Positions 3-50,300 are shown, counted from the stretch's first letter. The stretch: 64,000 nt of DNA from Candidatus Aenigmatarchaeota archaeon (GCA_016198585.1 JACQII010000006.1:34296-98295); one strand, 5' to 3'. Made by a program: numbers and translations. Notes: a model not told the origin generated them from the letters alone.

Positions 3-131
3 ACGCCGACCGGGCAGGTCACGGTCGTGGAGTTCGTGGCCGACCGGGCTGGGGAATTTGTCTACTACTGCAGCATGCCGGGCCACCGGCAGAACGGCCA
101 CTGGGGCACGCTGACGGTCGTGGAAGCCTGA
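3..131 (+). CDS. C-terminal fragment of a cupredoxin-like (type-1 copper) protein, 5'-truncated by the window edge
   Basis: Frame-3 translation ...EFVYYCSMPGHRQNGHWGTLTVVEA* ends at TGA 129..131. The Y-C-x-x-P-G-H...G-x-L-T-V pattern resembles the C-terminal copper-ligand loop of plastocyanin/halocyanin/CuA-type cupredoxins. Confidence 0.45.
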   Translation, partial: TPTGQVTVVEFVADRAGEFVYYCSMPGHRQNGHWGTLTVVEA

Positions 132-166
132 TCGGGGTTTAAAAAACTTGTTCCCTATTCGTTCTC

Positions 167-15353: not shown

Positions 15354-15435
15354 CGTGCTTAACATTGCCGCGGATGGTTTATATTCGGACCTTGCCCCGC
15401 CGGCCCGTTTATTAGTCGGCCGGCTAATACTCGAC

Positions 15436-20000: not shown

Positions 20001-20092
20001 GGATTTGAAACACCTGGTGATCTGACCAAGACCGCTAGAAACGAAATGAAGAGAAGGATAGATACAAACAATATCCCTCTTCTAATTTCCAT
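17087..20092 (-). CDS. large cell-surface glycoprotein, family B. Signal peptide, >50 N-x-S/T sequons, poly-Gly linker, Cys module, coiled coil, TM helix, ~110-aa basic cytoplasmic tail
   Basis: 1001 aa. The N-terminal ~410 aa are encoded by low-GC DNA. SSGGSSGGGGGGGGGAGVPGCTCGEW linker. Coiled coil IPQIAELEQQLAALQETVAQYEE. TM WIILFGAIVILLATYLVAEILAPFI followed by an R/K-rich tail. Confidence 0.8.
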   Translation of the reverse strand: MEIRRGILFVSILLFISFLAVLVRSPGVSNPQSFQNCTQILSCGDSGAEGTCTCDQVNISDDIYADSGLSVSSSRSANLTVVLNSTKLLNGSVILYVELQVEWSISSLLNTPKCFIEVFNGSWNIVNDTTCPGTTDELIKLNITNITSTQLLTENITVRLNYTQTGAVKQLRIDLVRVNITYRTPHNVFNFTIKNDTTQNISNGINFTRNDNLTASALWITDNVLNATIEHNATGTFVNYSVITSFTGNWTNVTLNLTNYTQFPRAGIVNITAIYATDTFGQENGTSASKSFALLGDADARNITFSSPTSILNGSNVTIYCNVTDSNSTAVIPSYNVSFWKNNTLLGYNLTNSSGLASWLYLDTTSLVNSTTFNVSFNCSITNQPGIWYSASVSNTTTANLSIVEIEKINVTVNRTIYNRGESINFTVIDSLNGTVTEVRWTVNVTKFNQSSVVNLSGIANNFSLPILPSDPAGNWTVAINISKEGRTLALNYTFNVSASLVLTFTQPAAGGSYSANQIISDPNPQVLIRNVRNENLTYLVSANLTCPNVAFMISNGTGDVYQNTSQTCRAKDENGANFVLAANATDDFNNTGSANLALSTTTPSSGGSSGGGGGGGGGAGVPGCTCGEWVNQGCGIGLCSPDQMFQTRVCNPVGCNNLTSQCIAVPACLGVFDFNLTAFPVELELIQGSNESVILSVANTGDQLLQLVAVVDKQCCEVSAVPAFELLPKAGVDVAVAIRAPLTQSTGSYLVTFNLSFKSLVQTKAVKVTVLENALIPQIAELEQQLAALQETVAQYEEAGVSVEGLKSIADGVAAALEDAKKNIAADQPGFLEANLDYAADSINAAESQLFELSITKFLLENRWIILFGAIVILLATYLVAEILAPFIRMGREIMRLTREEKTLVNTRVETEKQYFKRIIDENTFNTILTEGQAKILKTRSLLTETRQRRASLLRERLSPRALGRWITRGIGKLKPRRTPHTDHPLHRKRKRFSWKGHGR

Positions 20093-20940
20093 CTTCGAAT
20101 CCCTCCGTGATTTCCTCGATATATATAATAGGGAGGGATTATTAGAATAGCACAGAAAGATTCAGAGATCTGATGGAAGAGAAAGTTCTAGAAAGGGCTA
20201 ACAGAGGGATAATCGTCCTGAACCTGAAGTCCAATTCCCGGATCCGTATAGAAAGAGTCACAAATCATATCTGAATTGTCATCAACACAGCCTTCCGAAG
20301 ACTCGTCAAAGTTTGACCAGTAGTTGCCACTCTGTCCAGAGATCCAGATATTAGAAGTAGCTGAAGTGCTCAGGTAGACCTGATTCAAACCGTCATTATT
20401 CTCGATGAAGTTATTGCTATAAATAGCGTTCCCAGTAGTGGAAAAAAGCATCTCAAGACCAGCGATAGAATTGAATGTAATATCATTGCTTGCTATTACA
20501 CTATCTTTAACGCCATCAAAGCCCATTCCGCCAGCAAGATTTTCGCTAATAACATTGGAATAGATATTGTTCGTCATTGTGTTTCCACCAAAAACTCCAT
20601 ATCCGTCATTTCCAAAGACATTATTATCGTAAATATTGAATCCGTCTCCTCCTGACCACGAAATTCCGTGTTCTTCGTTACTAAACACTACAAGATTACG
20701 CAAAATAACATTATCTGATCCCAAATCGTCAAATACTCCAACAGCGAAGTCTCTGATGCTGAGATCTTCTACCACGAGTTGCGATCTCCCGTTGAGATTA
20801 ACGCCTACATCCGCATCGTGGTCGTCGTTACCATCAATCGTGAAGCCACCGCCATTGAAGACAACATTGTCCGCGTTGAAAGTGGCGCATGTACCGTCAA
20901 AGTTGTTGATTGTTTGGGTGAGCGTCACTTTGTCAAAATA
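18860..20940. other. ~2.1-kb low-GC (~40%) codon-atypical block spanning the 3' part of the beta-helix gene, the intergenic promoter and the 5' ~1.2 kb of the giant glycoprotein gene
   Basis: Sharp composition shift at both ends inside continuous ORFs. Third codon positions are A/T-rich within the block and G/C-rich outside. Confidence 0.7.
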
Positions 20941-22020
20941 GCCGTTCAGCCTGTCGCTGGCCTCCGTGCAGGAGGCCGCTGTCGCCGTCAGGTAGACCGT
21001 GAAGGGGATTTGGGGGGTGTCGGTGACTTTGCCGGCGAGGTCGACCGCGTGGAAGGTGACCTCGTGGCTGCCGCGCGCCAGGCTGACCTGGACTTCCCAG
21101 GTGTTCCCCGCCTGCTGGACCATCGAGAGGAAGGGACTGCCGTCGACCGAGTAGGTCGCTTGCTCGAGAGGCTCGTTCACGGTCATGGAGAGGGTGACCG
21201 GGGCAGGGGCGACGTTCACCGGCCCGTTGATCACCTGGCCGACTGTCGGGGACGTGGCGAGGATGGCCGGAGCGAGGTCGATGGTGAACAGCCCGACCGC
21301 CGTGGTGGGCTTGCTGGCGAGATCGATCGCCAGGACCTGGACCATGTAGTCGCCGCCGAGGGTAGTCGAGGTGAACATGCCTTCGTACGTGCTGCCGCTC
21401 GGTGTGAGCGTGACCTGGGTGACCGAGAGATCAGGAAGCGTGACCTCAGCCGTGACTGAGGCGATCCCAAAGTTGTCCGTCACCTCGGCGGTGACCGTCA
21501 CCGGTTCGTCCTGCTCGAAGGTCTCCCCGTTCGGGACCAGGACGGTGACTTCAGGGGGGGTCGTGTCAACGACGGCGAACCCGGACAGGGCGATGCCGCT
21601 GGGCGCGTTCAGGATCTTGGGTTTCGCCACGACCTGGAGAGCATATTGGCCGAGCTCGACCGGGTTGAACGTGGCCTCATAGACGTTGCCGTTCTTGAGC
21701 ATCTGCAGGATCTGTGGGCCGCTGGGGGTGTCCAGAGTGGCTTTCACCGAGACCAGGGAACCGGCGTAGGTGACCTGGGCCTGGATCAGGACTTGACCAG
21801 GATATTCTACTTGGAGATCAGGAAGAGGGCTCAGGATGGTTACGATCGGTCCCGGCTGGGAGGGCAAGGTCGTCGGCTTCGGCCGGCCGCTGGTCGCGAT
21901 CGAGGGAGAGCTGGACCCGAGTCCGCTATAGGTAGATAGTTGAGCGGCAGCGAGCTGGGCAATCGCCAGCGTCGACGCTAGGAAGACTCCCATGACCACC
22001 AGGATGACGAGCTTCTGCAT
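20188..22020 (-). CDS. secreted protein with Ig-like domains and a C-terminal right-handed parallel beta-helix (PbH1/CASH, NosD-like) domain
   Basis: Signal peptide MQKLVILVVMGVFLASTLAIAQLAAAQ. Repetitive N.I..N.. units (ILRNLVVFSNEEHGISWSGGDGFNIYDNNVFGNDGYGVFGGNTMTNNIYSNVISEN...) characteristic of beta-helix repeats. The beta-helix part lies in the low-GC block. Confidence 0.7.
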   Translation of the reverse strand: MQKLVILVVMGVFLASTLAIAQLAAAQLSTYSGLGSSSPSIATSGRPKPTTLPSQPGPIVTILSPLPDLQVEYPGQVLIQAQVTYAGSLVSVKATLDTPSGPQILQMLKNGNVYEATFNPVELGQYALQVVAKPKILNAPSGIALSGFAVVDTTPPEVTVLVPNGETFEQDEPVTVTAEVTDNFGIASVTAEVTLPDLSVTQVTLTPSGSTYEGMFTSTTLGGDYMVQVLAIDLASKPTTAVGLFTIDLAPAILATSPTVGQVINGPVNVAPAPVTLSMTVNEPLEQATYSVDGSPFLSMVQQAGNTWEVQVSLARGSHEVTFHAVDLAGKVTDTPQIPFTVYLTATAASCTEASDRLNGYFDKVTLTQTINNFDGTCATFNADNVVFNGGGFTIDGNDDHDADVGVNLNGRSQLVVEDLSIRDFAVGVFDDLGSDNVILRNLVVFSNEEHGISWSGGDGFNIYDNNVFGNDGYGVFGGNTMTNNIYSNVISENLAGGMGFDGVKDSVIASNDITFNSIAGLEMLFSTTGNAIYSNNFIENNDGLNQVYLSTSATSNIWISGQSGNYWSNFDESSEGCVDDNSDMICDSFYTDPGIGLQVQDDYPSVSPF

Positions 22021-22166
22021 GCTTCCCTTCCCTGAACGCCTCTTGATTTTTCGCTTAATAAAGGTGTATCACGGTGTTGTGTTAATTACTTGGTAGTGAC
22101 AGTATTTAAAGCTTTCCAGGCGCCCAAAACCGCCCTTTTAAGGGCCGGAGCGAATATAATATCTGC

Positions 22167-22895
22167 ATGGCCACCGACAGGATCCCGACCGGTGTCACCG
22201 GCCTGGACAGCAAGATGCAAGGCGGGTTCTTCCCAGGCAGCGTCAACCTCATTACCGGGAGGACGGGGACCGGGAAATCCACCTTCTGCTCCTCCTTCCT
22301 GTACGCCGGCGCCCTGAAGAAGGAGCCTGGCCTGTACATCACGACCGAGGAACGCGAGCAGGACATCAAGGGCGACATCCAGGCCATGTTCGGCTGGGAC
22401 TTGGAGAAGCTGGAGAAGCAGAAGCTGCTGAAGTTCATCTCCCTGAAGCCGGTCTTCCCGGGCAAGAAACTGAGCCTGGACGACATCAACCGCCTCATCA
22501 AACTCTACGTGTTCGACGTCTCCGAGCAGCTGGACCAGGGGATCAAGGCCGTCAAGGCCCGGCGCGTGGTGATTGACTCGGTCTCGATCATCGAGATGTT
22601 CATCAAGGATGAGTACCTCTCCCGGACCGTGCTCATGCACATCGTGGAGAAGCTCAAGTCCCTGGGCGTGACGTCGCTCTTCACCGGGACCGTACCCGAG
22701 ACGTCTGAGGGCCTCTCCGGCGGTGGGATCATAGAGTACCTGGTCGACGGCGTGATCAAGCTCGACTTCGTGCCCGTGGCGGAGGAGTTCAAGCGCACGC
22801 TGACGATCCGGAAGATGCGGCGCACGGATCATTCGGTGATGATCCATCCCTTTGACATTGCCAAGACCGGACTGAAAGTTATCGAGATTAAGTAG
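22167..22895 (+). CDS. KaiC-like single-domain RecA-superfamily ATPase
   Basis: IPTGVTGLDSKMQGGF...LITGRTGTGKSTF (Walker A)...GLYITTEE...VVIDSVS (Walker B)...IRKMRRTDH. Confidence 0.75.
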   Translation: MATDRIPTGVTGLDSKMQGGFFPGSVNLITGRTGTGKSTFCSSFLYAGALKKEPGLYITTEEREQDIKGDIQAMFGWDLEKLEKQKLLKFISLKPVFPGKKLSLDDINRLIKLYVFDVSEQLDQGIKAVKARRVVIDSVSIIEMFIKDEYLSRTVLMHIVEKLKSLGVTSLFTGTVPETSEGLSGGGIIEYLVDGVIKLDFVPVAEEFKRTLTIRKMRRTDHSVMIHPFDIAKTGLKVIEIK

Positions 22896-22944
22896 CCCCT
22901 TCTTTGTAGGGAGCTTCTGGAGAACACAAAAAATACTTGCGACC

Positions 22945-23628
22945 TCAGATCTCCGACTGCCGGATGGCGATGCCCTTCTTGCTGATGACCATGGGGTAGA
23001 CGTCCTTCCCATGATCGGTCCGGCGCATCTTCCGGATCTGCAAACTCCGGGAGGTCGAGCCCTCGACACCCAGGTAGCTTAGCACGATGACCGCGTCAGC
23101 CACGAACTCCTCGACCCCGAACATGCTCAGGCCCTTGGAGCCCTCGGGAATGTCGGCCATGAGGAGGGCAGTCGTGTGGCCGGCGCGCTTGATGGTACTG
23201 ATGATGCCATAGAGCTTCTTGCGGATCTGCGCAGGGTTCTCCATGGCGAGGGTCATGACCGACGTCGAGTCGATCGCCAGGCGCTTGGCCCGCGAGCGGC
23301 TGAGCTCGTCGAGGATCACGGTCCCGATGTTGTTGATCTGGGCAGGGTCATGGTAGATGATCTTGCAGAGGCCCTTCTTCTCGTACTTCTGGAAGTCCCA
23401 ACCGAACTGCAGGGAGTCCGCCCGGATGTCTTCAGGGGTCTCCTCCAGGGTGATGTAGAGACCAGGGTCCCCCCGTTCGAGGCCGTGGTAGATGAACTGT
23501 GAAGCCAGGATAGTCTTCCCACACCCGGTCCCGCCGGACACCAGGATGACCGAGTTCTCCACCAGCCCGCCTTCGATGAGACTGTCGAGTCCCGGGATGC
23601 CGGTCTTGACCCGCTGCAGTAGCGGCAT
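22945..23628 (-). CDS. KaiC-like single-domain RecA-superfamily ATPase (paralog of 22167..22895)
   Basis: VKTGIPGLDSLIEGGL...VSGGTGCGKTIL...GLYITLEE...LAIDSTS...IRKMRRTDH; clearly paralogous to the convergent neighbour. Confidence 0.75.
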   Translation of the reverse strand: MPLLQRVKTGIPGLDSLIEGGLVENSVILVSGGTGCGKTILASQFIYHGLERGDPGLYITLEETPEDIRADSLQFGWDFQKYEKKGLCKIIYHDPAQINNIGTVILDELSRSRAKRLAIDSTSVMTLAMENPAQIRKKLYGIISTIKRAGHTTALLMADIPEGSKGLSMFGVEEFVADAVIVLSYLGVEGSTSRSLQIRKMRRTDHGKDVYPMVISKKGIAIRQSEI

Positions 23629-23743
23629 GGTATATTATGGGTCGCGGCCTCTTAAGAGCTTGTGAGACCGGCCAGCGACCGCGAAGAAGCGCGCACAAGA
23701 GCGGTCCTGCAGCTATTTTAAGCTTGCAGCCCCATTGGTGTCC

Positions 23744-24808
23744 ATGGACATCATGGCGTACCTGGACGCCCAGAAGCAGCAGATTGACACCCTCATCCGC
23801 CGCTACCTCCCCCAGACCATGGACGCCAAGGAGGTGGAATGGCTCGCAGGCAAGCCGCGGTTCGCGCATGACCGGGAAGCCATCGCCAACAGCCTCCTCG
23901 TGCCGAGCTGGGACCTGCTCAACCGCGGCGGCAAGCGCTGGCGACCTGCATTGTTCCTCCTCCTCGTCGAGGCGCTCGGCGGCGACGTGAACAAGGTCCG
24001 CGACGTCGCGATTCTCCCCGAGCTGGTCCATAACGGGACCCTGATCATCGACGACATCGAAGACGGCGGCGAGGTGCGCCGCGGCAAGCCTTGCCTCCAC
24101 AAGATCTACGGGATCGACATCGCCATCAACGCGGGCAACTTCCTCTACTTCCATCCCCTCCTGACCTTTGCCAAGCAGGCTGGCCGGTTCGACGACACGA
24201 CCCTGCGTCGCGCCTACGAGGCCTACGCGCAGGAGATGATCAACGTGAGCATCGGCCAGGGGACGGACATCTACTGGCACAAGGGCAAGAAGTCCCGGAT
24301 CAGCGAGGAACAGTACCTGCAGATGTGCGCCTTCAAGACCGGCTGCCTCTCACGGCTGGCTGGCCGGCTGGCGGCCATCTTCGCCGGGGCCGACAAGGCG
24401 GCCGAGGACAAGGTCGGCCGGTTCTGCGAGTCCGTCGGGATCGCCTTCCAGATTCAGGACGACATCCTCTCCGCGACCGCGACGGGCGAGTTTGCCAAGC
24501 GGAAAGGCTACGGCGACGACATCACCGAGGGCAAGCGCTCGCTCCTCGTGATCCACGCCCTCGGGAAGGCCGACCCCGAGGACCGGCTGCGTCTCCTGGA
24601 TATCTTGAACCGCCACACCCGGGAGGAGAAGGCGATTGCGGAGGCCCTGGCGATCCTGAAGAAGTACCAGTCGGCCGAGTATGCCAAGCGCATCGCCCGG
24701 ACCCTCGTCGAAGACGCGTGGGAAGCCCTGGAACCTGAACTGGACGCGTCGCACGCCAAGGAGCTCCTCGCCAGCCTCGTGCGCTTCGCGACTGAGCGCC
24801 AGATCTGA
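23744..24808 (+). CDS. idsA: geranylgeranyl diphosphate synthase (trans-polyprenyl synthetase)
   Basis: First Asp-rich motif LIIDDIEDGGEVRRG and second motif FQIQDDILS. TATA GCTATTTTAAGC 27 nt upstream of ATG 23744. The track ORF starts at TTG 23735. Confidence 0.8.
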   Translation: MDIMAYLDAQKQQIDTLIRRYLPQTMDAKEVEWLAGKPRFAHDREAIANSLLVPSWDLLNRGGKRWRPALFLLLVEALGGDVNKVRDVAILPELVHNGTLIIDDIEDGGEVRRGKPCLHKIYGIDIAINAGNFLYFHPLLTFAKQAGRFDDTTLRRAYEAYAQEMINVSIGQGTDIYWHKGKKSRISEEQYLQMCAFKTGCLSRLAGRLAAIFAGADKAAEDKVGRFCESVGIAFQIQDDILSATATGEFAKRKGYGDDITEGKRSLLVIHALGKADPEDRLRLLDILNRHTREEKAIAEALAILKKYQSAEYAKRIARTLVEDAWEALEPELDASHAKELLASLVRFATERQI

Positions 24809-24857
24809 GAGAAAGGAGACGGCGCAATCTTCTTAAACGCCCGCGCCAATAGCAGGC

Positions 24858-25043
24858 ATGGACATCCGCGGCAGGCTGCGGGACTATCGGCGCGTGCTCC
24901 AAATCGCGCGCAAGCCCACGAAGGATGAGTTCACCACCTCGGCCAAGGTCACCTCGGTCGGGCTGCTGATCATCGGCTTCATCGGCTTCCTCATCTTCCT
25001 GCTCTTCATCGCCAGCTGCAGCATGGCCGGCATCTTGTGCTGA
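24858..25043 (+). CDS. secE: protein translocase subunit SecE / Sec61-gamma
   Basis: 61 aa, ...[33 protein letters not shown] single C-terminal TM. Conserved position upstream of spt5-rpl11. Confidence 0.75.
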
Positions 25044-25055
25044 AATGGGTGGTTT

Positions 25056-25433
25056 ATGCGTTTCTTGGTAAAGAAAATCGTTGTTGATAGAGGCGTAAGT
25101 TTGACGGCGTCGCCAGACTCCACTAAATACGAGTTGAATGATATAAAGCGTGCCTGGGTAGATTGCGAATTAACGAATGGAGAGACCTCTGAGATCACCC
25201 TAATAATTGAAGGAATTAATCGTGGACGATACCTCACGATAAGTATAAAGAAAGGCTCAATTGAAACGCGTCATGCAATGATAATATTACTTAAAGCGCT
25301 TTTTAACCTTCTTCAAAAGAAGCCGTTTAACCCTATTGATTCTTCGGGAAATATTTGTATCTTAAGCGTAGACGAACTGGAAATTCTTGGAGCTTTACAT
25401 AAGATCAAGGATATGGGAGGTCTTGACATCTAA
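25056..25433 (+). CDS. hypothetical protein encoded in low-GC island
   Basis: 125 aa; ~33% GC with AT-rich third positions, in contrast to the flanks. Confidence 0.5.
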   Translation: MRFLVKKIVVDRGVSLTASPDSTKYELNDIKRAWVDCELTNGETSEITLIIEGINRGRYLTISIKKGSIETRHAMIILLKALFNLLQKKPFNPIDSSGNICILSVDELEILGALHKIKDMGGLDI

Positions 25434-25507
25434 CAATCGGTTATGAACTGGATGTATCTCAGGACTTTTTCCAAGAGTCGGTCTTGTTCAATGTTGGGTA
25501 GTTAATT

Positions 25508-25969
25508 TCATCCCATGGTGATTTTTTCGCTAAGAAAGAAGGAGATGAAAAAAAGAAATATGATATATAATAAAGAGAACGTGGTATAAAACAAATAGTC
25601 AGAAACCAACATTTTAGAATATATGAACACATCATGAGCGATGAGTGATACAGAAACACTAGAAGTGAGTAGATTGAAATCTTTTTCTGACAAATAGTTT
25701 TCCTCTCTGACAGTAACCTTCTTTTTGATTCCTAATAGTTTAGTGAGCTTACTAAGAATAACATAGACAGGAAGAGAAAGGTGCTTTATAACAAAGGTGT
25801 AAGACAGAGTTAGTAAGAAGTAAGAGGCAATGGCCATCAGAAAAGGAAAGCTCTGAACAGAGACTTCAATGTTGAAGGAACTCGTGAGGATCTTCGCGAG
25901 AAATCCCACAATCACAGATGTTAAAGCAAGGGAGATTTCGGGCCTCTTTGTGTCATAGTCAATAGACAT
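25508..25969 (-). CDS. hypothetical 4-TM membrane protein encoded in low-GC island
   Basis: 153 aa, several hydrophobic helices, ~30% GC. Confidence 0.5.
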   Translation of the reverse strand: MSIDYDTKRPEISLALTSVIVGFLAKILTSSFNIEVSVQSFPFLMAIASYFLLTLSYTFVIKHLSLPVYVILSKLTKLLGIKKKVTVREENYLSEKDFNLLTSSVSVSLIAHDVFIYSKMLVSDYLFYTTFSLLYIIFLFFISFFLSEKITMG

Positions 25970-26116
25970 CGGATAGTAATTGATAGCTTGCTATAAAGCT
26001 AATGCCATGAGTATTTGTGCTAACTTGATTTTCTATACAAGCCTCTCATGATAACGTTTATAAACCCCCGCGGCAGATATCAACTATTCTTCGCAGCTTC
26101 ACTGGCTAGGGGAACC

Positions 26117-31105: not shown

Positions 31106-34100
31106 CTAAACCGGATGGTTTCCTACATAAGATGGCGTTGCTGGGCTCGCGCTGCCGGCACCACCAGCAGCACCAGCACCTCCAGCAGCATCTCCCGTGA
31201 CCGTTGACGCTTCTGTCCCGCCGGACCCAAACGTGCCGATGAAGCAGACCAGCGCCGTCGTGGCCTGGATGAGCAGGTAGGAGGAGTCGCCGACCTCGCC
31301 GAGGGCGCCGCCCAAGGCAGCCTCATCAGGCGCGGCGCAGATGGCGTCCTTCTCTGCCTTGGCCTGGTCTATGGCCGTCTCGGTCTTCGAGTAGAAAGGC
31401 AGCAGGATCGTGGTGATGCACGAAGCGACGGTAGACTTCGTCTTGGCTGAAATGCAAGATTCGGGGCCACCGATTTGGGGCCAGTTCGCGATGCAGCAGT
31501 TGGGGCACTCAGGACCGCAAAGAGCACATTTGATCCACTCCTTTGCCACGAGCCCCCAGACCACCACCATGATGGCGGCTAGGACGTTGTTATTCTTCTT
31601 CTTCTCGCTGATCTTCTGGTCGAGGGAGGCCTTCTGCTGCACGCAGGACTTGATCTGCTGGTCGTCCTTGAAGAGCGTGAATGTCGTCGCGGCCGACAGC
31701 TCCTGAGTCACCGGGAAACCGCCGTTCTCGTAGGAGATCGTGAGGAAGAAGCTGACGTCGCGCTCCTCTTCCCCTCCAGTAATTGCGGTGAGACCGCCGG
31801 TCGGGTTGGGAATATGGTCCACGACCAGGCTGCACTTCACGGTCCCATTTTCTGCTTTATAGCATGACGCAGACGTCAGGTTCTCCCCCTCGACCAGTTT
31901 GTTCGCGTTGACCAGCGTGAACGAGGCCGGAGCGTTGGCGAGGTCCATGGTGAACGACAACGCGCTCGTGAACGCGCAACCGCCGCCCGAGGAGGGTGGG
32001 AGGATGTCGCATTCCAGCGGCTGTGGATCGACCCCAGAGACGATGAGCGCAATCGCGGATTGCGGGAGGCAGACGCTCTCGGGGTGGCTGCCGCCCGGCA
32101 GGCAGACGTCACCTGCGACGCTGCATCCACAATCGAGGCAGCAGCTCTCGCCGAGGAAGGCTTCACAGCCATCCTGGCCGCAGTGCGCCACCTGGGCGAC
32201 GGTCAGGACCGGCAGCGGTGCGGTCAGCGTCGTCGTGTCCTGGGAGGTGCCGTTGTTGTAGCTGAAGGTGGCGCGGAGGCTGTTGCCCTCGAGCAGGACC
32301 GAGGGCTGGCCGTCCACGAAGAAGGGCGGGACGGTCAGCGAGCAGGCGAAAGGCAGGCCCGCCGCTTCGGCAGGAGAGGGCACGCAGCTGATGGTGCAGG
32401 GCAGGACCGTGTTCCAGAGCGTGCAGGCGAACTGGAGGTTGGTGATGCCGGTCGGCGGGGGGTTGGCGATGAGGGCGGTCACGTTGACCGTGTGCGCAAG
32501 GCTCTGGTCCACGACGCTCGTAGGCGTCGCTCCGAGGACGAGCAGGACTGGATCAGTGGCGACGCAGACATCGCCGCCTGACGGGCTCGACGGCGTGACG
32601 GTGTTGCAGTAGCCGGCAGAGCAGCCGCAGTCATAGCAGCACGTCCCCTGATCTTCGTATGCGTCGCAGGTCCCGTCGCCGCAGCTGAAGGACGTGAACG
32701 AGAGTCCAGGAGCCTGGGTGCTGAGCGTGCTGGAAATGGTGGCCGGACCGTCCTTGTAGGTCACGGGCAGGGAGAGGGTCGGGGTCAGGAGGTAGTTCTT
32801 GAACTGGTCGTACCCGTCGACCGTAAAGGTGTACGTGCAGGACGAGAGGAACGTTCCCGGGACGCCGATGTCACCGCCGCAGCTGGCCGTGCAGGGTGCC
32901 GTGCAGGGTGCTCCGCCAGAGAGGCAGGCGATCGCGCATGTCGGCTGCCCTACCGACAGGCTGAGCGGCTCGGTCTGGATCACGGCCTGGAAGGCGACCG
33001 GATTGGCGGTGGTGTTGTAGTAGCTGTAGGTCGGGACGGCGTTGATGATCGAAAGGGCAGGACTGCTCTTGCAGACCCCGGTCGAAGGAGCGGCCGCAGC
33101 GGCGAGGTCGCAGAATTGGTTCGTCGGGCACGCGGTGTCATAGCAGCAGTTCGCCGCCGTCTCCCCCAGGGCCTGTTCCCAGAGGCCGTTGCCGCAGGTC
33201 CACGATCCCACAGTCACGGGGTCGACCGGCGCGGTGAGGCTCAGGGTCTTGGTCGCGAAACCGTCCGGGAAGGCGAGGCCGAAGGTGATGCTGTTTGGGG
33301 TCAGGGAGAAGCTGCCTGCGTCGCAGGGAGTCGCAGGAGGTATGGGGATGGTGCAGGTGAAGATGTTCGCCGGGCTTTCGGTGCAGCTGACCGCGCCTTT
33401 CGCCGCGCCGTCGAGGGTGTAGGTCTGGGAGGTGATCGCCGTTCCTGCAGGCGGGTTGTTGAGCTGCAGGGTCACAGTCACGGTGTTCTGGACGTTGCAA
33501 TTCGTCACGAAGGTGTTCGTCGGTGGGATCACCTGGAGCGTGACTTGCGAGAGGGGCGCACAGCCTCCTGAGGCGTCACAGTACTGGCCGGTCGAGCAGC
33601 CGCAGTCCGCGCAGGACGTCAGGGACGTTTCCCCCTGGGAGGATTCGCAGACACCGTTACCCGGCGTGTAGGGCGGATTCACGTTCAGCGCAATGCCGTT
33701 CTGGAAGCTGCCCACCTTCGGGAAGGCGAAGCCATAATCTGTCGCGAGCGAGGTCAGGGTATCGCCGCTGATCGCCTGGCCAGAGCTGGCCGGTGGTGAG
33801 GAACTGGTGAGCAGGTTGACCATCGACGATCCAAGGAACTTGATCCCCGCGCTGGTGTCGACCTGTTGGAACGGGATCATGCCCCGGGTGGCGATGAAGC
33901 TCTTGGCCGTCTGGATGTCCGCAGCGGTCTTGACCTGGACGGTCAGCGCAGAAATGTCGGTGGTCGTGTGGACCGGGACGCTCGCGGCAGTGTTCCGCGT
34001 GATGTCGTGCCAGAAGGCCTGCCAGCTCGTCGCGCCGGCGGTTGTCAGCCGCACCAAGATCATAACGCTGCCCTTCTGGGGGAAGCTGGAGGTCGCCAGC

Positions 34101-34447: not shown

Positions 34448-36402
34448 GTGGTGAGGAGGGAAGCAAAGGTCTGCCCATATGCCCCGCCAGCGAGGGTGGA
34501 GACCACCCAGTTGGAGCGCACCGACTCGTTGACAAGGGTGGCGCAGTCAGTAGTGCAGGCCACGAAGTCCGGCGCGCACTGGCCCGTGGGCTCGTCTCCC
34601 GGACCGCCAATGCAGAGGAGGGCCTTCTGCAGGAGCTGGTCAGAATCCGGCACATGGACGGTCAGTTCGGCGTCCTGAGGGGGCACCAGGACCGTGGTTG
34701 AGGAGAGCACGATCGTCGGCAGCTTCCCTGGATTGGCCGCTACCAGGGCCGGGTTGGCGACGATGACCTCTGCGCTATATGTCCCTGAAGGGAGGATGGT
34801 CGTGTCCACGGAACTCAGGATGCCCGTCACGTTGCCGAGACAGTCGGCAGCGTTGGCCTCGGTGCACTCCACGTCCTGGCTAGCAGCGGGATCGATGTTG
34901 CTAATCGCCGCGTCCTGGTCGCCGGCGAATGTTGCGAAGACGAACTCCATGTCCACGGGCGAGGCCGCGCAGGTCGGTCCGACCTGCACGAAGTGGAGCG
35001 TCACCGTCGGCTTCTGGTCGAGGGTCAGGGTCGCGCCGTCGAGGCTCGCCGCATCTGTTGCGGCCGTGAGGAACTCGTAGGCTGCGCTCTTGTACACGGC
35101 GACTTCGCCGGATCCGCAGAGGAGGTCGGCCACCACCAGTCCCTGGTCGTTGCTCTCGCCGGCGAAGCAGCCGCCGAAGCTGACCGACGCTCCTTGGACC
35201 GGCAGGCCAAGGCTGTCCACGATCTTGATGGTCGCCAGACACGCGAGGTCATCGCACGGTCCCGGTGCAGCGACAGGGGCGCCGCAGGTGCCAGGTTCCA
35301 TGGACTGGTCGTTCCCCGGGTCGACTATCGAGACCAGCGACGCGACGTTCAGGCGGTGACCAGTGACTTGGTCTTTCACGCTGACGACGACCGGGAAGAG
35401 CAGGTTATACTTCTGGACGTAGCTGATCTCGCAGTTGGGCACTTGAAAAGGAGGGATGAGTGCGAAGTCGACCTCATTGTTCTTGATCATGACCGGTGAG
35501 GAGAAGGAGAACGCGAAGTCATCCGGGAAGTAGAGCCCAGGCGCCAGGTCAGGGTAGGCCGTGCCGCTGACCGTGGGAACAGCAAAGGAGAGGGGCTCGC
35601 CCTTGTCGGTGGACTTGGGCTGCCACCAGGCGGTCGAGGAGAGGGAATGGGCGATCGCCTCCTTGACCGCCGTGGCGAGGAACGCCGGCGACCGGAAGAT
35701 GGTCTTGCCGCACTCGAGGAGGAAACCTGATGTGGGGACCGCAGGTTCCCCATCTGCTGCAGCTTCGGAGAAGTAGAGCGCAGCAAGCGCGTGGTTCTCG
35801 AGGAAGCGGGTCGTCGATGCTTCGGCGGCGAAGTCGCGCGCGAAGCGGGTCACGCGTCCGAACCCCGTGGGCACGGTGAACGTGTAGGGCTGCGGCATCG
35901 CGTAGCCGCCGACTGTGGTCGGGAGCGCGACCTGGAAGTCGATCTTGTCGTCGAAGATCGTCGCATCGACCACGAGCTGGGTCGTGTCGAAGGCGACGTC
36001 CTCGTCAACGGCCAGGGAGCCGAGGGAATCGGCAATCGTCAGCTCGACGCCCCGCTCCAACCAGCCCTCGACCTGGGCTTCCGTAGGAGCGAGGTCGTTC
36101 TCGCATTGCTGCCAGTAGGGGACGCCGACGCCCAGGAAGAGCGTCGCCTCGGGGATCGTGAACGCCTGGTCGGCGAGGATCTGGTCGGTCAGGTAGCCGC
36201 CGTGGAGCTCCATGGTCTCGATGATGTCGTTCGCCGAGGCGGTGGCCGCGCTGAGGAGAGACTCCTTGACCGCCTTCTGCGCCTGGGCGACCGACGAGGG
36301 CACCGGTGACGGAGGGGTCTGGAAGACCGTGGAGAGGATCGCGATGATGGCGAGGACGACGATGCCTGCCACGATGATGATCTCTACCTGCCCGGTCCTC
36401 AT
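34417..36402 (-). CDS. 661-aa surface protein with type-IV-prepilin-like (class III signal peptide-like) N-terminus
   Basis: MRTG|QVEIIIVAGIVVLAIIAILSTVF: short basic leader, G, then Q+1 and a ~22-aa hydrophobic helix (compare haloarchaeal pilin RRG|QVGIGTLIVF...). Followed by beta-rich and Cys-containing domains. First gene of an operon with 31106..34447. Confidence 0.65.
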   Translation of the reverse strand: MRTGQVEIIIVAGIVVLAIIAILSTVFQTPPSPVPSSVAQAQKAVKESLLSAATASANDIIETMELHGGYLTDQILADQAFTIPEATLFLGVGVPYWQQCENDLAPTEAQVEGWLERGVELTIADSLGSLAVDEDVAFDTTQLVVDATIFDDKIDFQVALPTTVGGYAMPQPYTFTVPTGFGRVTRFARDFAAEASTTRFLENHALAALYFSEAAADGEPAVPTSGFLLECGKTIFRSPAFLATAVKEAIAHSLSSTAWWQPKSTDKGEPLSFAVPTVSGTAYPDLAPGLYFPDDFAFSFSSPVMIKNNEVDFALIPPFQVPNCEISYVQKYNLLFPVVVSVKDQVTGHRLNVASLVSIVDPGNDQSMEPGTCGAPVAAPGPCDDLACLATIKIVDSLGLPVQGASVSFGGCFAGESNDQGLVVADLLCGSGEVAVYKSAAYEFLTAATDAASLDGATLTLDQKPTVTLHFVQVGPTCAASPVDMEFVFATFAGDQDAAISNIDPAASQDVECTEANAADCLGNVTGILSSVDTTILPSGTYSAEVIVANPALVAANPGKLPTIVLSSTTVLVPPQDAELTVHVPDSDQLLQKALLCIGGPGDEPTGQCAPDFVACTTDCATLVNESVRSNWVVSTLAGGAYGQTFASLLTTCGLQAVEVA

Positions 36403-36440
36403 ATAAAAGTATACGGCCGCGTATATTAAATACGATCGCC

Positions 36441-39238: not shown

Positions 39239-39796
39239 CTAGGGAGCGGACGTGTTCTCAGAATCGGTTTCGTTCGACGATGCGATCGGCTGCTCGGCCG
39301 GAGGCTCATCCACAACCGCAGGTTCAGTAGCCGGCGGCTGGGTGATGCTCAGGATGACGCAGTCCCGCGGCTGGACCACGGCGAGGCTGCAGAAGAGGGG
39401 GAAGAACTCCTGGGCGTCCTTGTCCGTGAGGTCGACGATCGCGCCGCCGCGGCCAACCAAGTCGAAGGTCGTGAAGCCTTCACCGGTCTCAGTCGCGACC
39501 GATTGCATGATGATGAAGCCGGGGTAGGCGTTCACCAGCGACCGGAGTTGCTGGTCCTTCTCCCTGCAGTCCGTGCAGTCCTTCTGGTAGACCGACCGCG
39601 CGACCACCCGGCCGGCGTTCAGGACGGAGGAGACCTCCTGGGTTCCCAGGAAGCGCTCGACGATCAGGGTCAACTGCGCCTGTTGGGGCGCGGCCGCCGT
39701 GTTGCCGGTGACCCGGAACCCGACCGCGGCGAAGCCGGCGACTGACGTGATCATGATGGCCCCGATCACCGCCGCGAAGATCCGTTCCTTGCGCAT
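39239..39796 (-). CDS. membrane-anchored hypothetical protein
   Basis: N-terminal signal-anchor MRKERIFAAVIGAIMITSVAGFAAV; 185 aa; Pro/Glu-rich C-terminus. Confidence 0.5.
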   Translation of the reverse strand: MRKERIFAAVIGAIMITSVAGFAAVGFRVTGNTAAAPQQAQLTLIVERFLGTQEVSSVLNAGRVVARSVYQKDCTDCREKDQQLRSLVNAYPGFIIMQSVATETGEGFTTFDLVGRGGAIVDLTDKDAQEFFPLFCSLAVVQPRDCVILSITQPPATEPAVVDEPPAEQPIASSNETDSENTSAP

Positions 39797-47304: not shown

Positions 47305-50300
47305 CTACCGGAACTCGCCGAGGCGGCGCTGGGCTTTCTTCTTCTTGAAGAGCCGGCCGAAGACGCCGCTCTTGGGGGCGGTGTAGCCGCTGGCGGGCTT
47401 GAACCGGTCATAGCCCGACGCGTACTTGGTGATCTTCTCTTCCTTGGCGCGAGGCGGCTTGGGCGACCGTTTGAAGAGGGAGAAGCCCTTCTTCTCCGGG
47501 GAACGGAACCCTTTCCCTGAGCTGAAGCCCCGCCGGGCAGGGAGCATGAGGTAGACTAGGACAGCAGCGACGCCGATGATGACCACGACGATAATGATCA
47601 GCGACGTGTCGAAGGCGAAGGGGAGGCCGCCCGCACCCGAGGGATTGATCTTGCCCTGGATCTCCAGGATAGTCGCCTGCAACTCCTCGATGAGCTCGTT
47701 CGCGGTGATGTAGTCGCCCGCGTCCAGAGCAGCTTGGATTTGGGCCTTGAGGGAGGCCATCTTGTCCACGAGGCCGGTGATCTCGTCCACCTGGTCGGCA
47801 GGGATCTGGCCGGCCGTGATGAGGGCGGCGACCTGGCTCTCCAGCGCATCGGCGGTGGGGGTCAGGTTGGCGTACGCCTCCTGGATCTCGGCCTTCTGCT
47901 GCTCGTTCGGCGCGACCGAGAAAGTGAAGGACTGGGAGGTGGAAGCGTCGGTCGCGAACGACGGGTAGGCCTTGAACGTCCCGTCATAGTGGGCCACCTT
48001 GGTCGTGGCGGTCGTGGTGAAGGTCACGGTGAAGTTGCAAGGAGTCGTGCAGGTCTCATGGTCGATGGACGTGGAGATGTTATCGATGAGAGTCTCCAGT
48101 TTGGTGCTGATCGTCTTCGCGTTGCCCTCGGACACCTTGATGAAGGCGGTCACTGTCTCGCCGGCGACGACCGAGAGGTTGGCGGGGTATTCGTCAATGT
48201 TCACGTCGTAGCCGACGCAGGCGTGGTCCTCGATATACTCAGAGGATGTGCAGTCCAGGGCCGTGCAGGTGCTGGAGACGCATGCCTGGTTGGCCGCGCA
48301 GCCCGCGTTCGTGCTGCAGGTCGTCGAACTGCTCGAGGAACTCGAACTCGTGGTCGATGAGGTGGTGGAGCCTCCGGTTTCCGTCACGGTCAACGTGATG
48401 CCGGTCACGTTGGCGTACGTCGCCCGGGAAGCGGTCACGTTCATGCTCGAGCAGGCGGTCGTGGAGGTGACGTTCTGGGCCGTCAGCTTGAACCGGAACC
48501 AGCAGCCAGTGGGAACCTCCTTTCCGATAGTAAAGGTGAAGGGGTTGTCGTTCGTGATGGATGAGCACTGGGAGCCGCCGTTTTCCACCTGGCCCGATGA
48601 ATCGGCGGTCACGGTGACCGGGCAGTTGCCCTTGTTGAACGTCAGCGTCGCGGCCACGGCAGGTAGCGGTCCGAAGTTGGCCACGGTGACATTGATGAAT
48701 GCCGTGCCGGTAGCCTCATTTATGCTCCCGAGGGTCGGAGTGGTCACGGCGGTGAGGTTGAGGCCGGTCTCGTTGATGACCAGGCTGTCATTCGACCCAG
48801 TGCCGAAGAGGGATGTGGCCGTACTGTTGGACTGGTTGGTGTGCCAGCTGATGTTGGTGTAGACACGGTAGCGGCCGCCTATCGTCGTATTGGGGATGGA
48901 GGCGTTGATGTTGCACACGTTCTGGGTGCTGGCTTCGTCTCCCTCGCACAAGGCGGAGTAGGAGGCCTTGATGTCGGTCAGGGTGACCGAGTAATCGGTG
49001 CGGTTGGTCTCCACGATCCACACGGTGGTGAAGTTGGTCACATTCGCAATGCCTCCTTCAGACGGACCGGGGACGCTGACAAAGGAGCCGTTCGCGAGAC
49101 TCGCCCGTATCTGCAAAGAGATGTTCGCACTCTCGTTCTGTGGGTACCAGACGTATGCGTACAAGGGGTTTCCATCGGTCATCGTGAGGAACCGGGTGCT
49201 GATCTTGCTGATCGTGGTGTTGAGGCGGTCGGTGAGGTTCAGCTCGAAGGAGATGTTGATGATGTCGTAGGGGTAAGAGGAGGCGCTCACGTTCGTGACG
49301 TTCGATGAGTTGATGACGAGCCAGCCCACATACAGGCCGGGGGCCTTGACTGTGCTGTTCATGGTCACGTTGAAGGTCAGATTGATCTGGTTCTGGGAGT
49401 TGGCGTTAACCGTTCCGTTGGGCATGAAGGCGATGCTGACGTTCACGGTCTTGGTGCTGTCTGTGCTAAGGGCGAGCTGCATGGCAAGGGAAGTGATGTT
49501 CGAGGAGGTGTTCGTGAAGTTGATCATGGAACCGCCAGTGTTGTTGAGCTGGACGCTCACCGAGATGTTCTTGTCGTAGCCGATGTTGTCGGTCTTCTTC
49601 AGCGTCGTGCTGTTGGAGAAGTTGCCGTTCACCAGCAGTATCCCGGCAGCCACGTCGAAGGTGAAGGGCAGCTTCACCTTCCAGCCAGACCCATTGGAGT
49701 AGGTGAAGAACCCTTCGTACGTGCCGTTGAGGAGCTGGTAGCGGGGCACGGTGACGGTTGCCGTGACGTTGTGGCTCATGTTATCCGCGTCGGGCCCGAT
49801 GGCCGAGGAGCTGTTGAAAGAAGCGTTGAGCGTGGTGAGGTTGAAGCTCGAGTTGAGCCAGGCAGACTCGCTCAGGTAGACCAGCAGCGAAAGGTTGTAC
49901 GGGTTCAGGGACGAGTCCTGGGAAACGTTGATGACCGACACGTTCCAGATGCCCTGGTTCTCGGGGTGGAACGGCCCTTCGAAGATGATAAACTCCTCGC
50001 GATGCAGGTTGCTTGCGTTCGCGGGTCCAGCCTTTGTCGTGGAGTTGAGCTGTGTGGTCCCGTTCGGACTGGTGAGGAAGAGGTCCCAGTCCGTCGCAAT
50101 CCCACTCACATTGTCCCACTCGAGACGGACCTTGATCTTGGTGGTGAAGTTGGGAACGATGAAGTCGACCTGCTGCGGGCTCGTCTGGTGGAGGAAGCGC
50201 TTGATGTTGTAGATCTCCCTGGTTTCGACTAGGCCCGCCAGCACGACATCGTCCATGTTCTTGAGGCGGAAGAACGATCGATTGGTCTCGTTCGGCTTGA

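Follow-up and report, generated by a model that had tools for sequence, protein, structure and literature searches.

A two-gene surface module of Aenigmarchaeota pairing a pilin-like protein with a giant Cys-rich protein, a candidate attachment device related to type IV pili

The 64-kb window, by which we mean the whole stretch of DNA that was analyzed, comes from a MAG of Candidatus Aenigmarchaeota, a group of uncultured archaea of very small size. Two adjacent minus-strand genes lie in it, and their features are collected in Table 1. Both open reading frames (ORFs) named by an earlier sequence-only reading exist as claimed, one encoding 661 aa and the other, downstream, 1113 aa when translated from a GTG (31106..34447). 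The downstream gene likely starts at the ATG at 34420 (M10 of the longest ORF), because GGAGGT precedes this codon, an independent gene call starts there, and the alignments of homologues begin there. The 31-nt overlap described previously therefore holds only for the longest ORF and likely shrinks to 4 nt, an ATGA that includes the stop codon of the upstream gene. A divergent AlaRS gene starts at 36441, leaving a spacer of only 38 bp to the 661-aa gene, and the position of a TATA-like box relative to the ATG implies a leaderless transcript, which fixes Met1 of the 661-aa protein.

Table 1. Features of the two-gene module in window coordinates. Residues of the giant protein, including its repeat units, follow the 1104-aa numbering; a slash marks a predicted cleavage site.
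Feature	Coordinates	Strand	Basis or remark
TATA-like box TTTAATATA	36422..36430	-	Sequence read; centre ~24 nt 5' of the ATG of the 661-aa gene
Gene of the 661-aa type IV pilin-like protein (class III signal peptide)	34417..36402	-	ORF; 100% match to a public protein
Predicted leader peptide MRTG, residues 1-4	36391..36402	-	Logo over 97 representatives; EppA-substrate site type
Hydrophobic N-terminal helix of the mature 661-aa protein, QVEIIIVAGIVVLAIIAILSTVF, residues 5-27	36322..36390	-	
Conserved alpha/beta core of the 661-aa family, ~residues 36-380	35263..36297	-	
Transthyretin-like / carboxypeptidase-regulatory-like beta-sandwich of the 661-aa protein, ~residues 388-470	34993..35241	-	
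Lineage-variable C-terminal part of the 661-aa protein	34420..34980	-	Family comparison and AF2
Shine-Dalgarno GGAGGT of the giant gene	34424..34429	-	
Gene of the giant Cys-rich surface protein, 1104 aa	31106..34420	-	ORF; start revised from GTG 34447 to ATG 34420
Sec-type signal peptide of the giant protein, MNVVKGLALAMIYLLASLPVSFA/TT, residues 1-23	34352..34420	-	
N-terminal domain of the giant protein, residues 24-249	33674..34351	-	W, P and C positions conserved (alignments A1, A4)
Repeat unit 1, residues 250-404	33209..33673	-	Cys knot GVCESSQGE..CADCGCSTGQYC..C, then beta-rich domain
Repeat unit 2, residues 405-575	32696..33208	-	Degenerate knot CGNG..GE..CCYDTACP..C
Repeat unit 3, residues 576-742	32195..32695	-	Knot CGDGTCDAYEDQGTCCYDCGCS..C
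Repeat unit 4, residues 743-915	31676..32194	-	Knot CGQDGCEAFLGESCCLDCGCS..C
C-terminal anchor region of the giant protein, residues 916-1104	31109..31675	-	

The 661-aa protein, whose public entry is a hypothetical protein from a Candidatus Aenigmarchaeota MAG, begins with MRTGQVEIIIVAGIVVLAIIAILSTVF in the ORF translation. Cleavage is predicted between G4 and Q5, and residues 5-27 have a mean hydropathy of 3.13, with the conserved Glu at +3 as their only charge. The AF2 model (pLDDT 90, pTM 0.84) places a helix at residues 2-26. The alpha/beta core matches no solved fold. In the C-terminal part, a second beta-sandwich (~475-585) is followed by a helical end that contains Cys (586-661). Other family members have a replacement or an extension here, and one of them, a paralogue, carries a VWA domain (E 1.3e-17). 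A bindosome-type solute-binding protein (SBP), as exemplified by Sulfolobus GlcS/AraS, was considered and rejected because Pfam and NCBIfam gave no match to an SBP family and the structural matches included no SBP fold.

The family of the 661-aa protein comprises 246 unannotated representatives and has no sequence match in Pfam, NCBIfam or the PDB. Its N-termini strictly follow the consensus M[RK]K[GA]/Q-x-E, with ~21 hydrophobic residues thereafter. In a logo built on 97 representatives with mutual identities below 50%, position -1 is G or A in 96 (G 73, A 23), position +1 is Q in 96, position +3 is E in 89, position -2 is K or R in 87, and position +9 is G in 75, while the remainder of the helix varies freely among hydrophobic residues. 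The leader measures 3-5 aa in 82 of the 97 (range 3-21). In the window protein, MRTG/Q, position -2 is T and position -3 is R, a variant seen in two of the 97. All 35 additional members from metagenome loci show the motif or a close variant, and the same K[GA]Q site type occurs on small pilin-like proteins neighbouring paralogous modules. The motif matches the validated EppA sites of Methanococcus maripaludis pilins, which read KGQV, KGQI, KGQL or RAQI, and EppA requires Q at +1 (PMC4371748). Since [KR][GA]/Q.E is kept family-wide at 3-5 residues from Met1, the likeness to a class III signal suggested by the sequence-only reading is supported, and we read the N-terminus as a probable class III (prepilin-type) signal. 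Pfam models of pilin N-termini (PF04021 Class_IIIsignal, PF07790 Pilin_N, PF01917 archaeal flagellin) matched neither the window protein at E<=1 nor any of 13 members of the family. The sole trace of curated pilin profiles was a 0.28 match to Pilin_N in one small neighbouring protein at a related locus (L013).

The giant protein belongs to a family found in 16 genome loci and 52 metagenome loci, and Pfam detects no domain in it or in its 15 homologues. Its Sec-type signal peptide is typical of the family, in which an h-region followed by P-V-x-[SG]-A/T is kept, and no [KR][GA] motif is conserved at the N-termini of the homologues. Pairwise BLAST bears out the four tandem units (E 1e-11 to 4e-4, except 0.07 for units 2 and 4), with identities of 24-50%, or 24-32% over long alignments. 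The further claim that every unit carries a CxDCGCSxGxC-type knot stands only in part: unit 2 has CCYDTACP in place of C.DCGCS, and unit 1 is without the first CG.G.C part. With these four Cys-knot/β units, the giant protein contains 58 Cys (5.3 per 100 aa). Its C-terminal region holds two hydrophobic segments (the first with its core at 946-959, the second at 1046-1065), and the juxtamembrane Cys cluster CALCGPECPNCC (965-976) lies between them; a charged helix (921-942) precedes the first segment, and the tail is rich in Gly, Ala and Ser. A hydrophobic segment at ~940-1030 is present in all 15 aligned homologues, accompanied in most of them by another such segment or a hairpin. N-glycosylation sequons are scarce in both proteins (6 in the 1104 aa of the giant, 2 in the 661 aa of the pilin-like protein), giving a density of 0.3-0.5 per 100 aa; in the window, four other large surface proteins hold 46-97 sequons, or 4.5-6.8 per 100 aa. 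Few sequons combined with many Cys point to a surface that binds proteins and is stabilised by disulfides, and away from a glycosylated layer of the wall.

The two genes recur together. A pilin-like gene lies directly 5' of the giant gene in every related locus with enough upstream sequence. Among the 36 giant genes for which this applies in the 52 metagenome loci, 33 are preceded by the pilin-like gene and three by another giant gene in tandem, with no exceptions. ATGA or other short gene overlaps recur across related loci, and the identity matrices of the two families correlate (r=0.89, Mantel p=2e-4), indicating co-divergence; paralogous modules apparently located on one 212-kb contig each group with their own type. 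Both the conservation of the N-terminal motif and the recurrence of the pairing are far beyond chance. In loci L012-L017 and L022, 5-8 small genes form a string that ends with the module, and several of these small genes encode K[GA]Q followed by a hydrophobic N-terminus. The window copy has only one large pilin-like gene and no small pilin genes. The module lies partly in a ribosomal-protein neighbourhood. Invariant adjacency, translational coupling and co-divergence, together with the position of paralogous pairs at the end of pilin-gene strings, support the functional pairing proposed from the sequence alone.

Building upon these observations, we propose that the two genes form one translationally coupled, bicistronic surface module, which is conserved in Aenigmarchaeota and specific to them, and that it encodes a device for attachment at the cell surface, uncharacterised so far and related to type IV pili; taken as a whole, we give this working model a probability of roughly 55%. 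In it, the product of the first gene would lose its four-residue leader MRTG to an EppA/PibD-like prepilin peptidase, exposing Gln as position 1 of a ~23-residue hydrophobic helix with the conserved Glu at +3. The mature protein would then consist of this helix, a Pro-rich linker, the novel alpha/beta core, two beta-sandwiches and the variable end. The second gene encodes a Sec-exported ectodomain of ~900 residues, made of the N-terminal domain and four disulfide-knotted repeat units, which the C-terminal hydrophobic anchor holds in the cell's own membrane. Both proteins would form a stoichiometric complex at the cell surface. Type IV pilus-type machinery encoded elsewhere would handle the pilin-like partner, which might act as a minor, tip or base pilin, or as a short pseudopilus stub; by docking onto the giant Cys-stabilised adhesin, or by organising it, this partner would yield an attachment structure. 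The genes, the conserved signal motif, the four repeats, the anchor, the invariant pairing and the co-divergence are observed. Cleavage of MRTG is predicted from the motif, and the physical interaction of the two proteins, any tethering or presentation of the giant by its pilin-like partner, the use of pilus machinery and the adhesive role are likewise what we infer.

The search for such machinery, suggested along with the original reading, returned no prepilin peptidase, pilus ATPase or platform gene in the 64-kb window or in the flanks of any of ~76 related loci. These flanks contain no T2SSE-type Walker-A motif, and none of the three gene types is listed in the eight Pfam gene tables. Processing of the 661-aa protein and its incorporation into a filament are therefore put forward as inferred steps of the model.

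The EppA-dependent Epd pili of M. maripaludis (EpdA-E) offer a close parallel for the N-terminus: they share [KR][GA]/Q and a hydrophobic helix with an early Glu, and several pilin-like genes lie together there, which is also true of the group-2 paralogous loci described here. Large putative adhesins have been placed in Epd-type loci by Makarova et al. (PMC4858521). Several features differ. The 661-aa protein has no sequence similarity to Epd pilins, is not matched by the Class_IIIsignal and Pilin_N models, is not a small pilin, and belongs to a DPANN archaeon rather than a methanogen; the early Glu is at +3 in its family and at +5 in known EppA substrates; and no locus links the module to EppA, the ATPase or TadC.

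The sequence-only reading knew of no such two-component arrangement, a point not supported here: bacterial minor pilins with PilY1, together with modular pilins, are established (PMC8179133), and comparable archaeal type IV pilus (T4P) loci have been described (PMC4858521). Like the 661-aa protein, modular minor pilins such as Streptococcus sanguinis PilB (vWA module) and PilC (lectin module), ETEC CofB and T2SS GspK combine a class III signal and N-terminal helix with large additional modules, for which a place at the filament tip and a role in binding are predicted (PMC8179133). The VWA-bearing member of the 661-aa family recalls both bacterial tip pilins and PilY1 (PMC8179133). The minor-pilin and PilY1/PilC complex of type IVa pili resembles the group-2 paralogous loci in that small pilin-like genes precede a large partner whose ordinary signal peptide directs it to the Sec route, and the adhesive role proposed here has its parallel in the PilY1/PilC tip complex. 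A PilY1-like operon with a minor-pilin set is, however, a description of the paralogous modules at L012-L017 and L022, not of the window pair with its lack of small pilins. Moreover, the giant has neither the C-terminal PilY1 beta-propeller (Neisseria_PilC), the domain that docks on minor pilins, nor any other Pfam domain, and it is anchored in the membrane by its own C-terminal region, which agrees poorly with display as a passenger at the tip of a pilus. Among archaea, Makarova, Koonin and Albers (2016) described Thermoproteales T4P loci in which minor-pilin sets occur with a large signal-peptide protein and with a second large protein that is Cys-rich, 'S-layer-like' and equipped with a C-terminal TM (PMC4858521). 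The same kinds of part are combined there, down to the conserved cysteines and C-terminal anchor of one large protein, but those loci include an ATPase and TadC, encode other protein families (arCOGs) and showed no detectable homology to the present proteins in the searches run, whereas our module is unlinked from machinery. DPANN T4P loci with unrecognisable 'dark-matter' pilins have also been documented (PMC6393860). The module thus adds a variant to arrangements already described, that is, to minor pilins with PilY1 and to archaeal T4P loci with large Cys-rich anchored proteins.

An envelope scaffold, rather than a pilus, is an alternative that we consider rather unlikely. The pilin-like protein would again be cleaved by prepilin peptidase, but its N-terminal helix would keep it in the membrane, and together with the giant it would build a constitutive lattice of two components, as a wall or pseudo-periplasm in the manner of SlaA/SlaB. 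Class III signal peptides also occur on the sugar-binding proteins of the Sulfolobus bindosome, and FlaF/FlaG bind the S-layer, which provides parallels for such a role; as in the SlaA/SlaB type, one partner, here the giant, has a C-terminal anchor. S-layer proteins are heavily glycosylated, however, whereas the present pair is almost free of sequons, and the four other large, sequon-rich, TM-anchored proteins of the window look like the real wall glycoproteins. SlaA and SlaB are not known to carry a class III signal. Neither these nor other known S-layer proteins showed sequence or fold homology to the pair, the fold match being generic (TM-scores <0.2; for SlaB, beta-sandwiches only, at 0.12-0.17). 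The placement of paralogous modules within pilin-gene strings and the VWA adhesion domain on one family member likewise speak against a scaffold.

If the 661-aa N-terminus were instead a plain uncleaved signal anchor, the protein would be a type II membrane protein and its conserved residues would serve topology or helix packing. We judge this improbable, as an anchor needs just positive charge and hydrophobicity. This leaves unexplained why G/A at -1, Q at +1 and E at +3 hardly ever vary, and why they keep a fixed spacing of 3-5 residues from Met1, across the divergent representatives and the 35 further members. Burying a Glu at the third residue of a membrane helix carries a cost unless the Glu has a function, as E5 has in bacterial pilins, and the K[GA]Q site is shared with neighbouring small pilin-like proteins. 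A cell-cell bridge or fusion device, in which the giant acts on a host membrane after its pilin-like partner delivers or primes it, appears very improbable: the large disulfide-rich ectodomain of the giant and the helix, hydrophobic segments and Cys cluster of its C-terminus would suit it, and parts of the literature describe contact with host cells as commonly needed by DPANN archaea, but the resemblance is architectural, no fusogen family matches by sequence or fold, and viral contigs yielded no relatives.

A bolder reading is a long shot: the module could be the apparatus by which Aenigmarchaeota make contact with their hosts, a device that bridges cells, is driven by a pilin and has no counterpart characterised so far. 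Pilus machinery would extract the pilin-like subunit from the membrane and thereby raise or prime the disulfide-locked giant, whose helix, hydrophobic hairpin and Cys cluster would engage or insert into the membrane of a partner cell. If this were true, the duplicated modules, with a housekeeping copy and copies in pilin strings, would represent different host specificities.

The window carries, on its minus strand, both open reading frames that a sequence-only reading had placed there, one for a 661-aa pilin-like protein and, downstream, one for a giant Cys-rich surface protein (table). The two genes do overlap, by 4 nt (ATGA) and not by the 31 nt originally given, because the giant gene almost certainly starts at ATG 34420 and not at GTG 34447: a GGAGGT lies just 5′ of this ATG, which overlaps the upstream stop codon as ATGA, a gene call made independently on an identical Logan contig begins there, and so do the alignments of its homologues. 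The giant protein therefore comprises 1104 aa. A TATA-like TTTAATATA lies ~24 nt upstream of ATG 36402, inside the divergent spacer between the pilin-like gene and the alanyl-tRNA synthetase (AlaRS) gene, a position that points to a leaderless mRNA and sets MRTGQVE as the N-terminus of the 661-aa protein; the AlaRS and pilin-like genes are probably both leaderless. The pair is flanked by housekeeping genes, the divergent AlaRS on one side and a convergent rpL1-rpL10-rpP1 cluster on the other; neighbour identities were read by eye and then confirmed with Pfam-annotated gene tables of syntenic contigs. In the opposite direction, facing the AlaRS gene, the same spacer holds an A/T-rich ATAAAAGTATA. 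The 661-aa sequence also exists, unchanged, in public data, where it is labelled 'hypothetical protein' and comes from a Candidatus Aenigmarchaeota MAG; the window is therefore DNA of a DPANN archaeon.

Coordinates and positions of the features discussed (nucleotide positions refer to the window unless a related locus, L, is named)
Feature	Location	Strand	Details
Pilin-like protein gene	34417..36402	-	ORF, 661 aa
Giant protein gene, longest ORF	31106..34447	-	1113 aa if from GTG
Divergent spacer, AlaRS/pilin-like gene	36403..36440		38 bp, sequence read
Cys cluster CALCGPECPNCC	31493..31528		giant protein residues 965-976, directly after first C-terminal hydrophobic segment
Giant protein, repeat unit 1	residues 250-404
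Giant protein, repeat unit 2	residues 405-575
Giant protein, repeat unit 3	residues 576-742
Giant protein, repeat unit 4	residues 743-915
N-terminal logo, leader length	3-5 residues		82/97 representatives
N-terminal logo, K/R	-2		87/97
N-terminal logo, G/A	-1		96/97
N-terminal logo, Q	+1		96/97
N-terminal logo, E	+3		89/97
N-terminal logo, G	+9		75/97
Predicted N-terminal helix, 661-aa protein	residues 2-26		AlphaFold2 model
Predicted Pro-rich break	residues 28-35		AlphaFold2 model
Predicted alpha/beta core	residues ~36-380		AlphaFold2 model
Predicted beta-sandwich	residues 388-470		AlphaFold2 model
Predicted second beta-sandwich, then Cys-containing helical end			AlphaFold2 model
Thioredoxin-like protein (by eye)	39239..39796	-	185 aa, membrane-anchored, conserved Cys, no Pfam match
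Large secreted protein, C-terminal membrane anchor	2642..5713	+	the four such proteins span 834-1450 aa
Large secreted protein, C-terminal membrane anchor	17087..20092	-
Large secreted protein, C-terminal membrane anchor	47305..51657	-
Large secreted protein, C-terminal membrane anchor	57296..59800	-
Four-gene run	59946..63489	-	211-aa protein; MinD/ParA-type ATPase (Pfam ParA, E 3e-22); 248-aa coiled-coil; 376-aa polytopic membrane protein with HEAGH
Secreted protein, Cys-rich N-terminal part and lamin tail domain	15418..16104	+	Pfam LTD, E 2.7e-15
Low-GC stretch	18000..26000		GC 0.51-0.54, vs ~0.64 elsewhere
Small-gene strings before paralogous modules	L012 3301..6032; L013 45..5989; L014 2308..5983; L017 36..3389; L022 5078..9278
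VWA-bearing family member P0139	L024 10001..13309		1102 aa, C-terminal VWA (E 1.3e-17)
Tandem copies of giant gene or whole module	L001 777..7183; L004 7881..14378; L006, L008, L032, L033, L023, L066, L073

With the giant protein as bait, we retrieved loci from GTDB species genomes (16) and from metagenomes (52). Wherever the upstream sequence suffices, the gene directly before the giant one, and on its strand, encodes a homologue of the 661-aa protein (phmmer E 1e-33 to 1e-85), and overlaps of 4–10 nt between the paired genes recur. For 36 metagenome giant genes, 2.2 kb or more of upstream sequence is available: a pilin-like gene comes before 33 of them and another giant gene before three, with no exceptions, and chance adjacency was rejected on this basis. 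Pairwise identities of the two families correlate across 13 modules, each a 661-aa-type gene with its downstream giant gene (r = 0.89, Mantel p = 2e-4). Two modules of different context type (P0004, group 1; P0089, group 2) are both listed with a longest contig of 212,351 bp and so apparently share it, each clustering with its own type, and a second contig carries two modules in tandem. Co-divergence, paralogues grouping by type and tandem modules together indicate that the module duplicates and diverges as a unit, and the functional pairing first proposed from the window is supported by invariant adjacency, translational coupling and co-divergence. Our data define two unannotated families, the pilin-like one with at least 246 representatives and the giant one with ~70 loci, which always form a translationally coupled pair; the literature searched does not describe this module. 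Tandem copies of the giant gene or of the whole module are frequent (table; the giant copies of L001 are 58% identical), and such duplication suggests diversification of the exposed partner.

Word-index homologue searches with the 661-aa protein, as a single sequence or as a 97-sequence profile, returned the query alone. An exhaustive HMMER scan yielded 246 representatives (clusters at 50% identity) at E ≤ 1e-3, 126 of them at E ≤ 1e-30, with alignments that begin at residue 1–4 in almost every case. Family members with a named source are Aenigmarchaeota hypothetical proteins, one being named 'Nanoarchaeota archaeon'. Around the predicted cleavage site, a short leader is followed by a nearly fixed set of residues (table), while the other helix positions of the 97 representatives are free to vary as long as they stay hydrophobic. 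All 35 additional members from metagenome loci have this motif or one close to it, and in the protein of the window it takes a minor variant form, T being at −2 and R at −3. The same type of processing site has been validated in Methanococcus maripaludis pilins (KGQV, KGQI, KGQL, RAQI), whose peptidase EppA needs Gln at +1 (PMC4371748). Because a plain signal anchor has no need of G/A, Q and E at fixed positions, the class III (prepilin-type) signal suspected earlier on the 661-aa protein is, as judged from the family-wide motif, well supported, and its cleavage is predicted. Curated Pfam pilin N-terminal models do not match the family, which therefore stands outside those profile-defined pilin families; likewise, neither protein has a significant match in Pfam, NCBIfam or PDB sequences, whether searched as a single sequence or as a profile. 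BLAST of the 661-aa protein against a 261-aa upstream fragment of L001 gave no match, which is no evidence against conservation, since this fragment is a lineage-specific Cys-rich C-terminal extension of an L004/L005-type homologue.

AlphaFold2 with the 97-sequence alignment produced a confident model of the 661-aa protein (pLDDT 90, pTM 0.84; table), whereas prediction from the single sequence was useless (pLDDT 36). Foldseek searches of this model against PDB and BFVD returned only strings of beta-sandwiches with TM-scores below 0.2; according to the model, the conserved core of the family is a confidently predicted fold without a solved relative.

The giant protein opens with a Sec-type signal peptide (MNVVKGLALAMIYLLASLPVSFA↓TT). 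Its N-terminus also loosely fits KG↓L, and a class III reading was rejected because the homologues keep the h-region and an A-x-A-like P-V-x-[SG]-A↓T site and have no [KR][GA] motif. An N-terminal domain of ~225 residues precedes four tandem units, each starting with a Cys knot of the type CG(D/N)G.C..(E)..C(C).DC.C...C...C; that these are true repeats, as initially described, is confirmed by their mutual BLAST matches (E 1e-11 to 4e-4; 0.07 for units 2 and 4). The protein contains 58 cysteines, most of them invariant across 15 homologues, and it and these homologues lack any Pfam, NCBIfam or PDB sequence match. Unit 4 is followed by a charged helix, a hydrophobic segment, the juxtamembrane cluster CALCGPECPNCC, a second hydrophobic segment and a low-complexity tail. 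A hydrophobic segment at ~residues 940–1030 is found in all homologues, in many as a hairpin, and the group-2 paralogues continue for a further 400–700 residues beyond it. The Cys cluster may bind metal or serve as a lipidation-type motif; homologues have comparable clusters (e.g., CVVCCSSHSPCSC in L009 and CLPLCGGSPCC in L011). A single CGDGTC..E..C.ADC knot, of the type that starts each repeat, also lies just before the anchor in two of the four large anchored proteins of the window (2642.. and 57296..), so this knot type is a shared module of the organism's surface proteins.

We propose, with a probability of roughly 0.55, that the 661-aa product is a type IV pilin-like protein of modular build with a class III signal peptide, from which the MRTG leader would be removed, that it would then be handled by pilus-type machinery encoded elsewhere and complex with the co-translated giant protein, and that the two together would make up a surface attachment structure. 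No A24 peptidase, FlaI/PilB-type ATPase or TadC/FlaJ platform was found in the 64-kb window, and none was detected in the flanks of any related locus (up to ±10 kb, shorter where contigs end). This search, which looked for the T2SSE Walker-A motif at all loci, scanned 10 proteins of the window against Pfam and consulted the Pfam gene tables available for 8 loci, yielded only a MinD/ParA ATPase and an SRP54-like GTPase, the latter recognized from Walker-A motif and length alone. MinD/FleN ATPases accompany some archaeal T4P loci (PMC4858521); the four-gene run of the window holds nothing pilus-like beside its MinD/ParA ATPase. Archaea often have pilin genes that stand alone (PMC4858521), and T4P loci whose pilins are unrecognisable have been described in DPANN archaea (PMC6393860); the lack of machinery near the module therefore makes the pilus link weaker without refuting it.

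The main rival explanation retains processing but has the pair form an envelope scaffold without filaments, comparable to the bindosome, FlaF or SlaA/SlaB. We consider it less likely, though credible; the housekeeping gene context and the membrane segments that each partner has of its own speak for it, and a wall-layer role is at odds with the 0.3–0.5 N-glycosylation sequons per 100 aa in the pair, compared with an extreme 4.5–6.8 N-x-S/T sequons per 100 aa in the four other large anchored surface proteins of the window, which are probably the real wall or S-layer glycoproteins. That the N-terminus is an uncleaved signal anchor is improbable, as this would leave the motif conservation unexplained. 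A cell-cell bridging or fusion device, with the architecture of the giant's C-terminal region as its sole basis, is very improbable.

Modules occur in three contexts. In group 1, which includes the window, the order is thioredoxin-like membrane protein, AlaRS, module and rpP1-L10-L1. The 185-aa thioredoxin-like protein accompanies the module in every group-1 locus, in conserved order beyond AlaRS, and may help the Cys-rich pair to form disulfides. In group 2, the module stands at the end of a string of 5–8 small genes, with a secreted ~450–530-aa protein next. The small genes match no Pfam family above threshold except for Lcl_C in the 645-aa first gene of L013, and several of them begin with K[GA]Q or RGA and a hydrophobic N-terminus. 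By N-terminus they form ortholog groups of the types K[GA]Q-MF[IV], R/K-G/A-A-IQ(M/L)SLGFIV, M-x-[VT]-G-[AM]-[VA]-F, K[GA]Q-SS-[IL]-M-E-Y and K[GA]Q-[AT]-S. These conserved strings look like an undescribed archaeal set of minor and major pilins; hhalign comparisons of the 661-aa family with them were weak (best probability 34%), and such genes are absent from the window. Group 3 comprises a Sec-exported Cys-rich protein, two pilin-like genes and the giant gene. In L024, the first of the pilin-like genes encodes the VWA-bearing P0139 and the next a paralogue, the giant gene coming after both, and L025 has the same four-gene layout without VWA. A viral or mobile-element origin of the module was rejected, as it has no relatives in viral contigs and its chromosomal synteny is stable.

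The sequence-only reading knew of no such two-component arrangement, yet comparable sets exist. The 661-aa family shares its signal type with EppA-dependent Epd pili, and the module has its gene logic and VWA module in common with bacterial modular minor pilins and the minor-pilin/PilY1 tip complex. With these systems, its closest functional analogues include the T4P loci that Makarova et al. (2016) described in Thermoproteales, where sets of minor pilins occur together with two large proteins, one with a signal peptide and the other Cys-rich and anchored at its C-terminus (PMC4858521). The module differs from known analogues in that both protein families are new to profile libraries, the core fold of the 661-aa family is unmatched, Glu occupies +3, the giant partner is self-anchored, no locus examined links it to assembly genes, and one copy lies in a ribosomal-protein neighbourhood.

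The DPANN archaea, Aenigmarchaeota included, are uncultured, and the majority are believed to live attached to other cells; to our knowledge, their contact-making proteins are almost entirely unknown. Because one partner bears a prepilin-peptidase-type signal and the pair sometimes lies within pilin operons, it is a concrete, testable candidate for a lineage-specific surface attachment or contact structure, which would extend the modular-pilin idea from bacteria to archaea. If the 661-aa protein is not part of a filament, the module would represent class III signal peptides serving envelope architecture, which is also poorly documented.

Elsewhere in the window, the low-GC stretch contains the genes for a 1001-aa and a 610-aa surface protein, and its composition may be due either to a foreign origin or to a coding bias rich in Asn and Thr. 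An LTD gene, like the one in the window, is also found near the module in L026.
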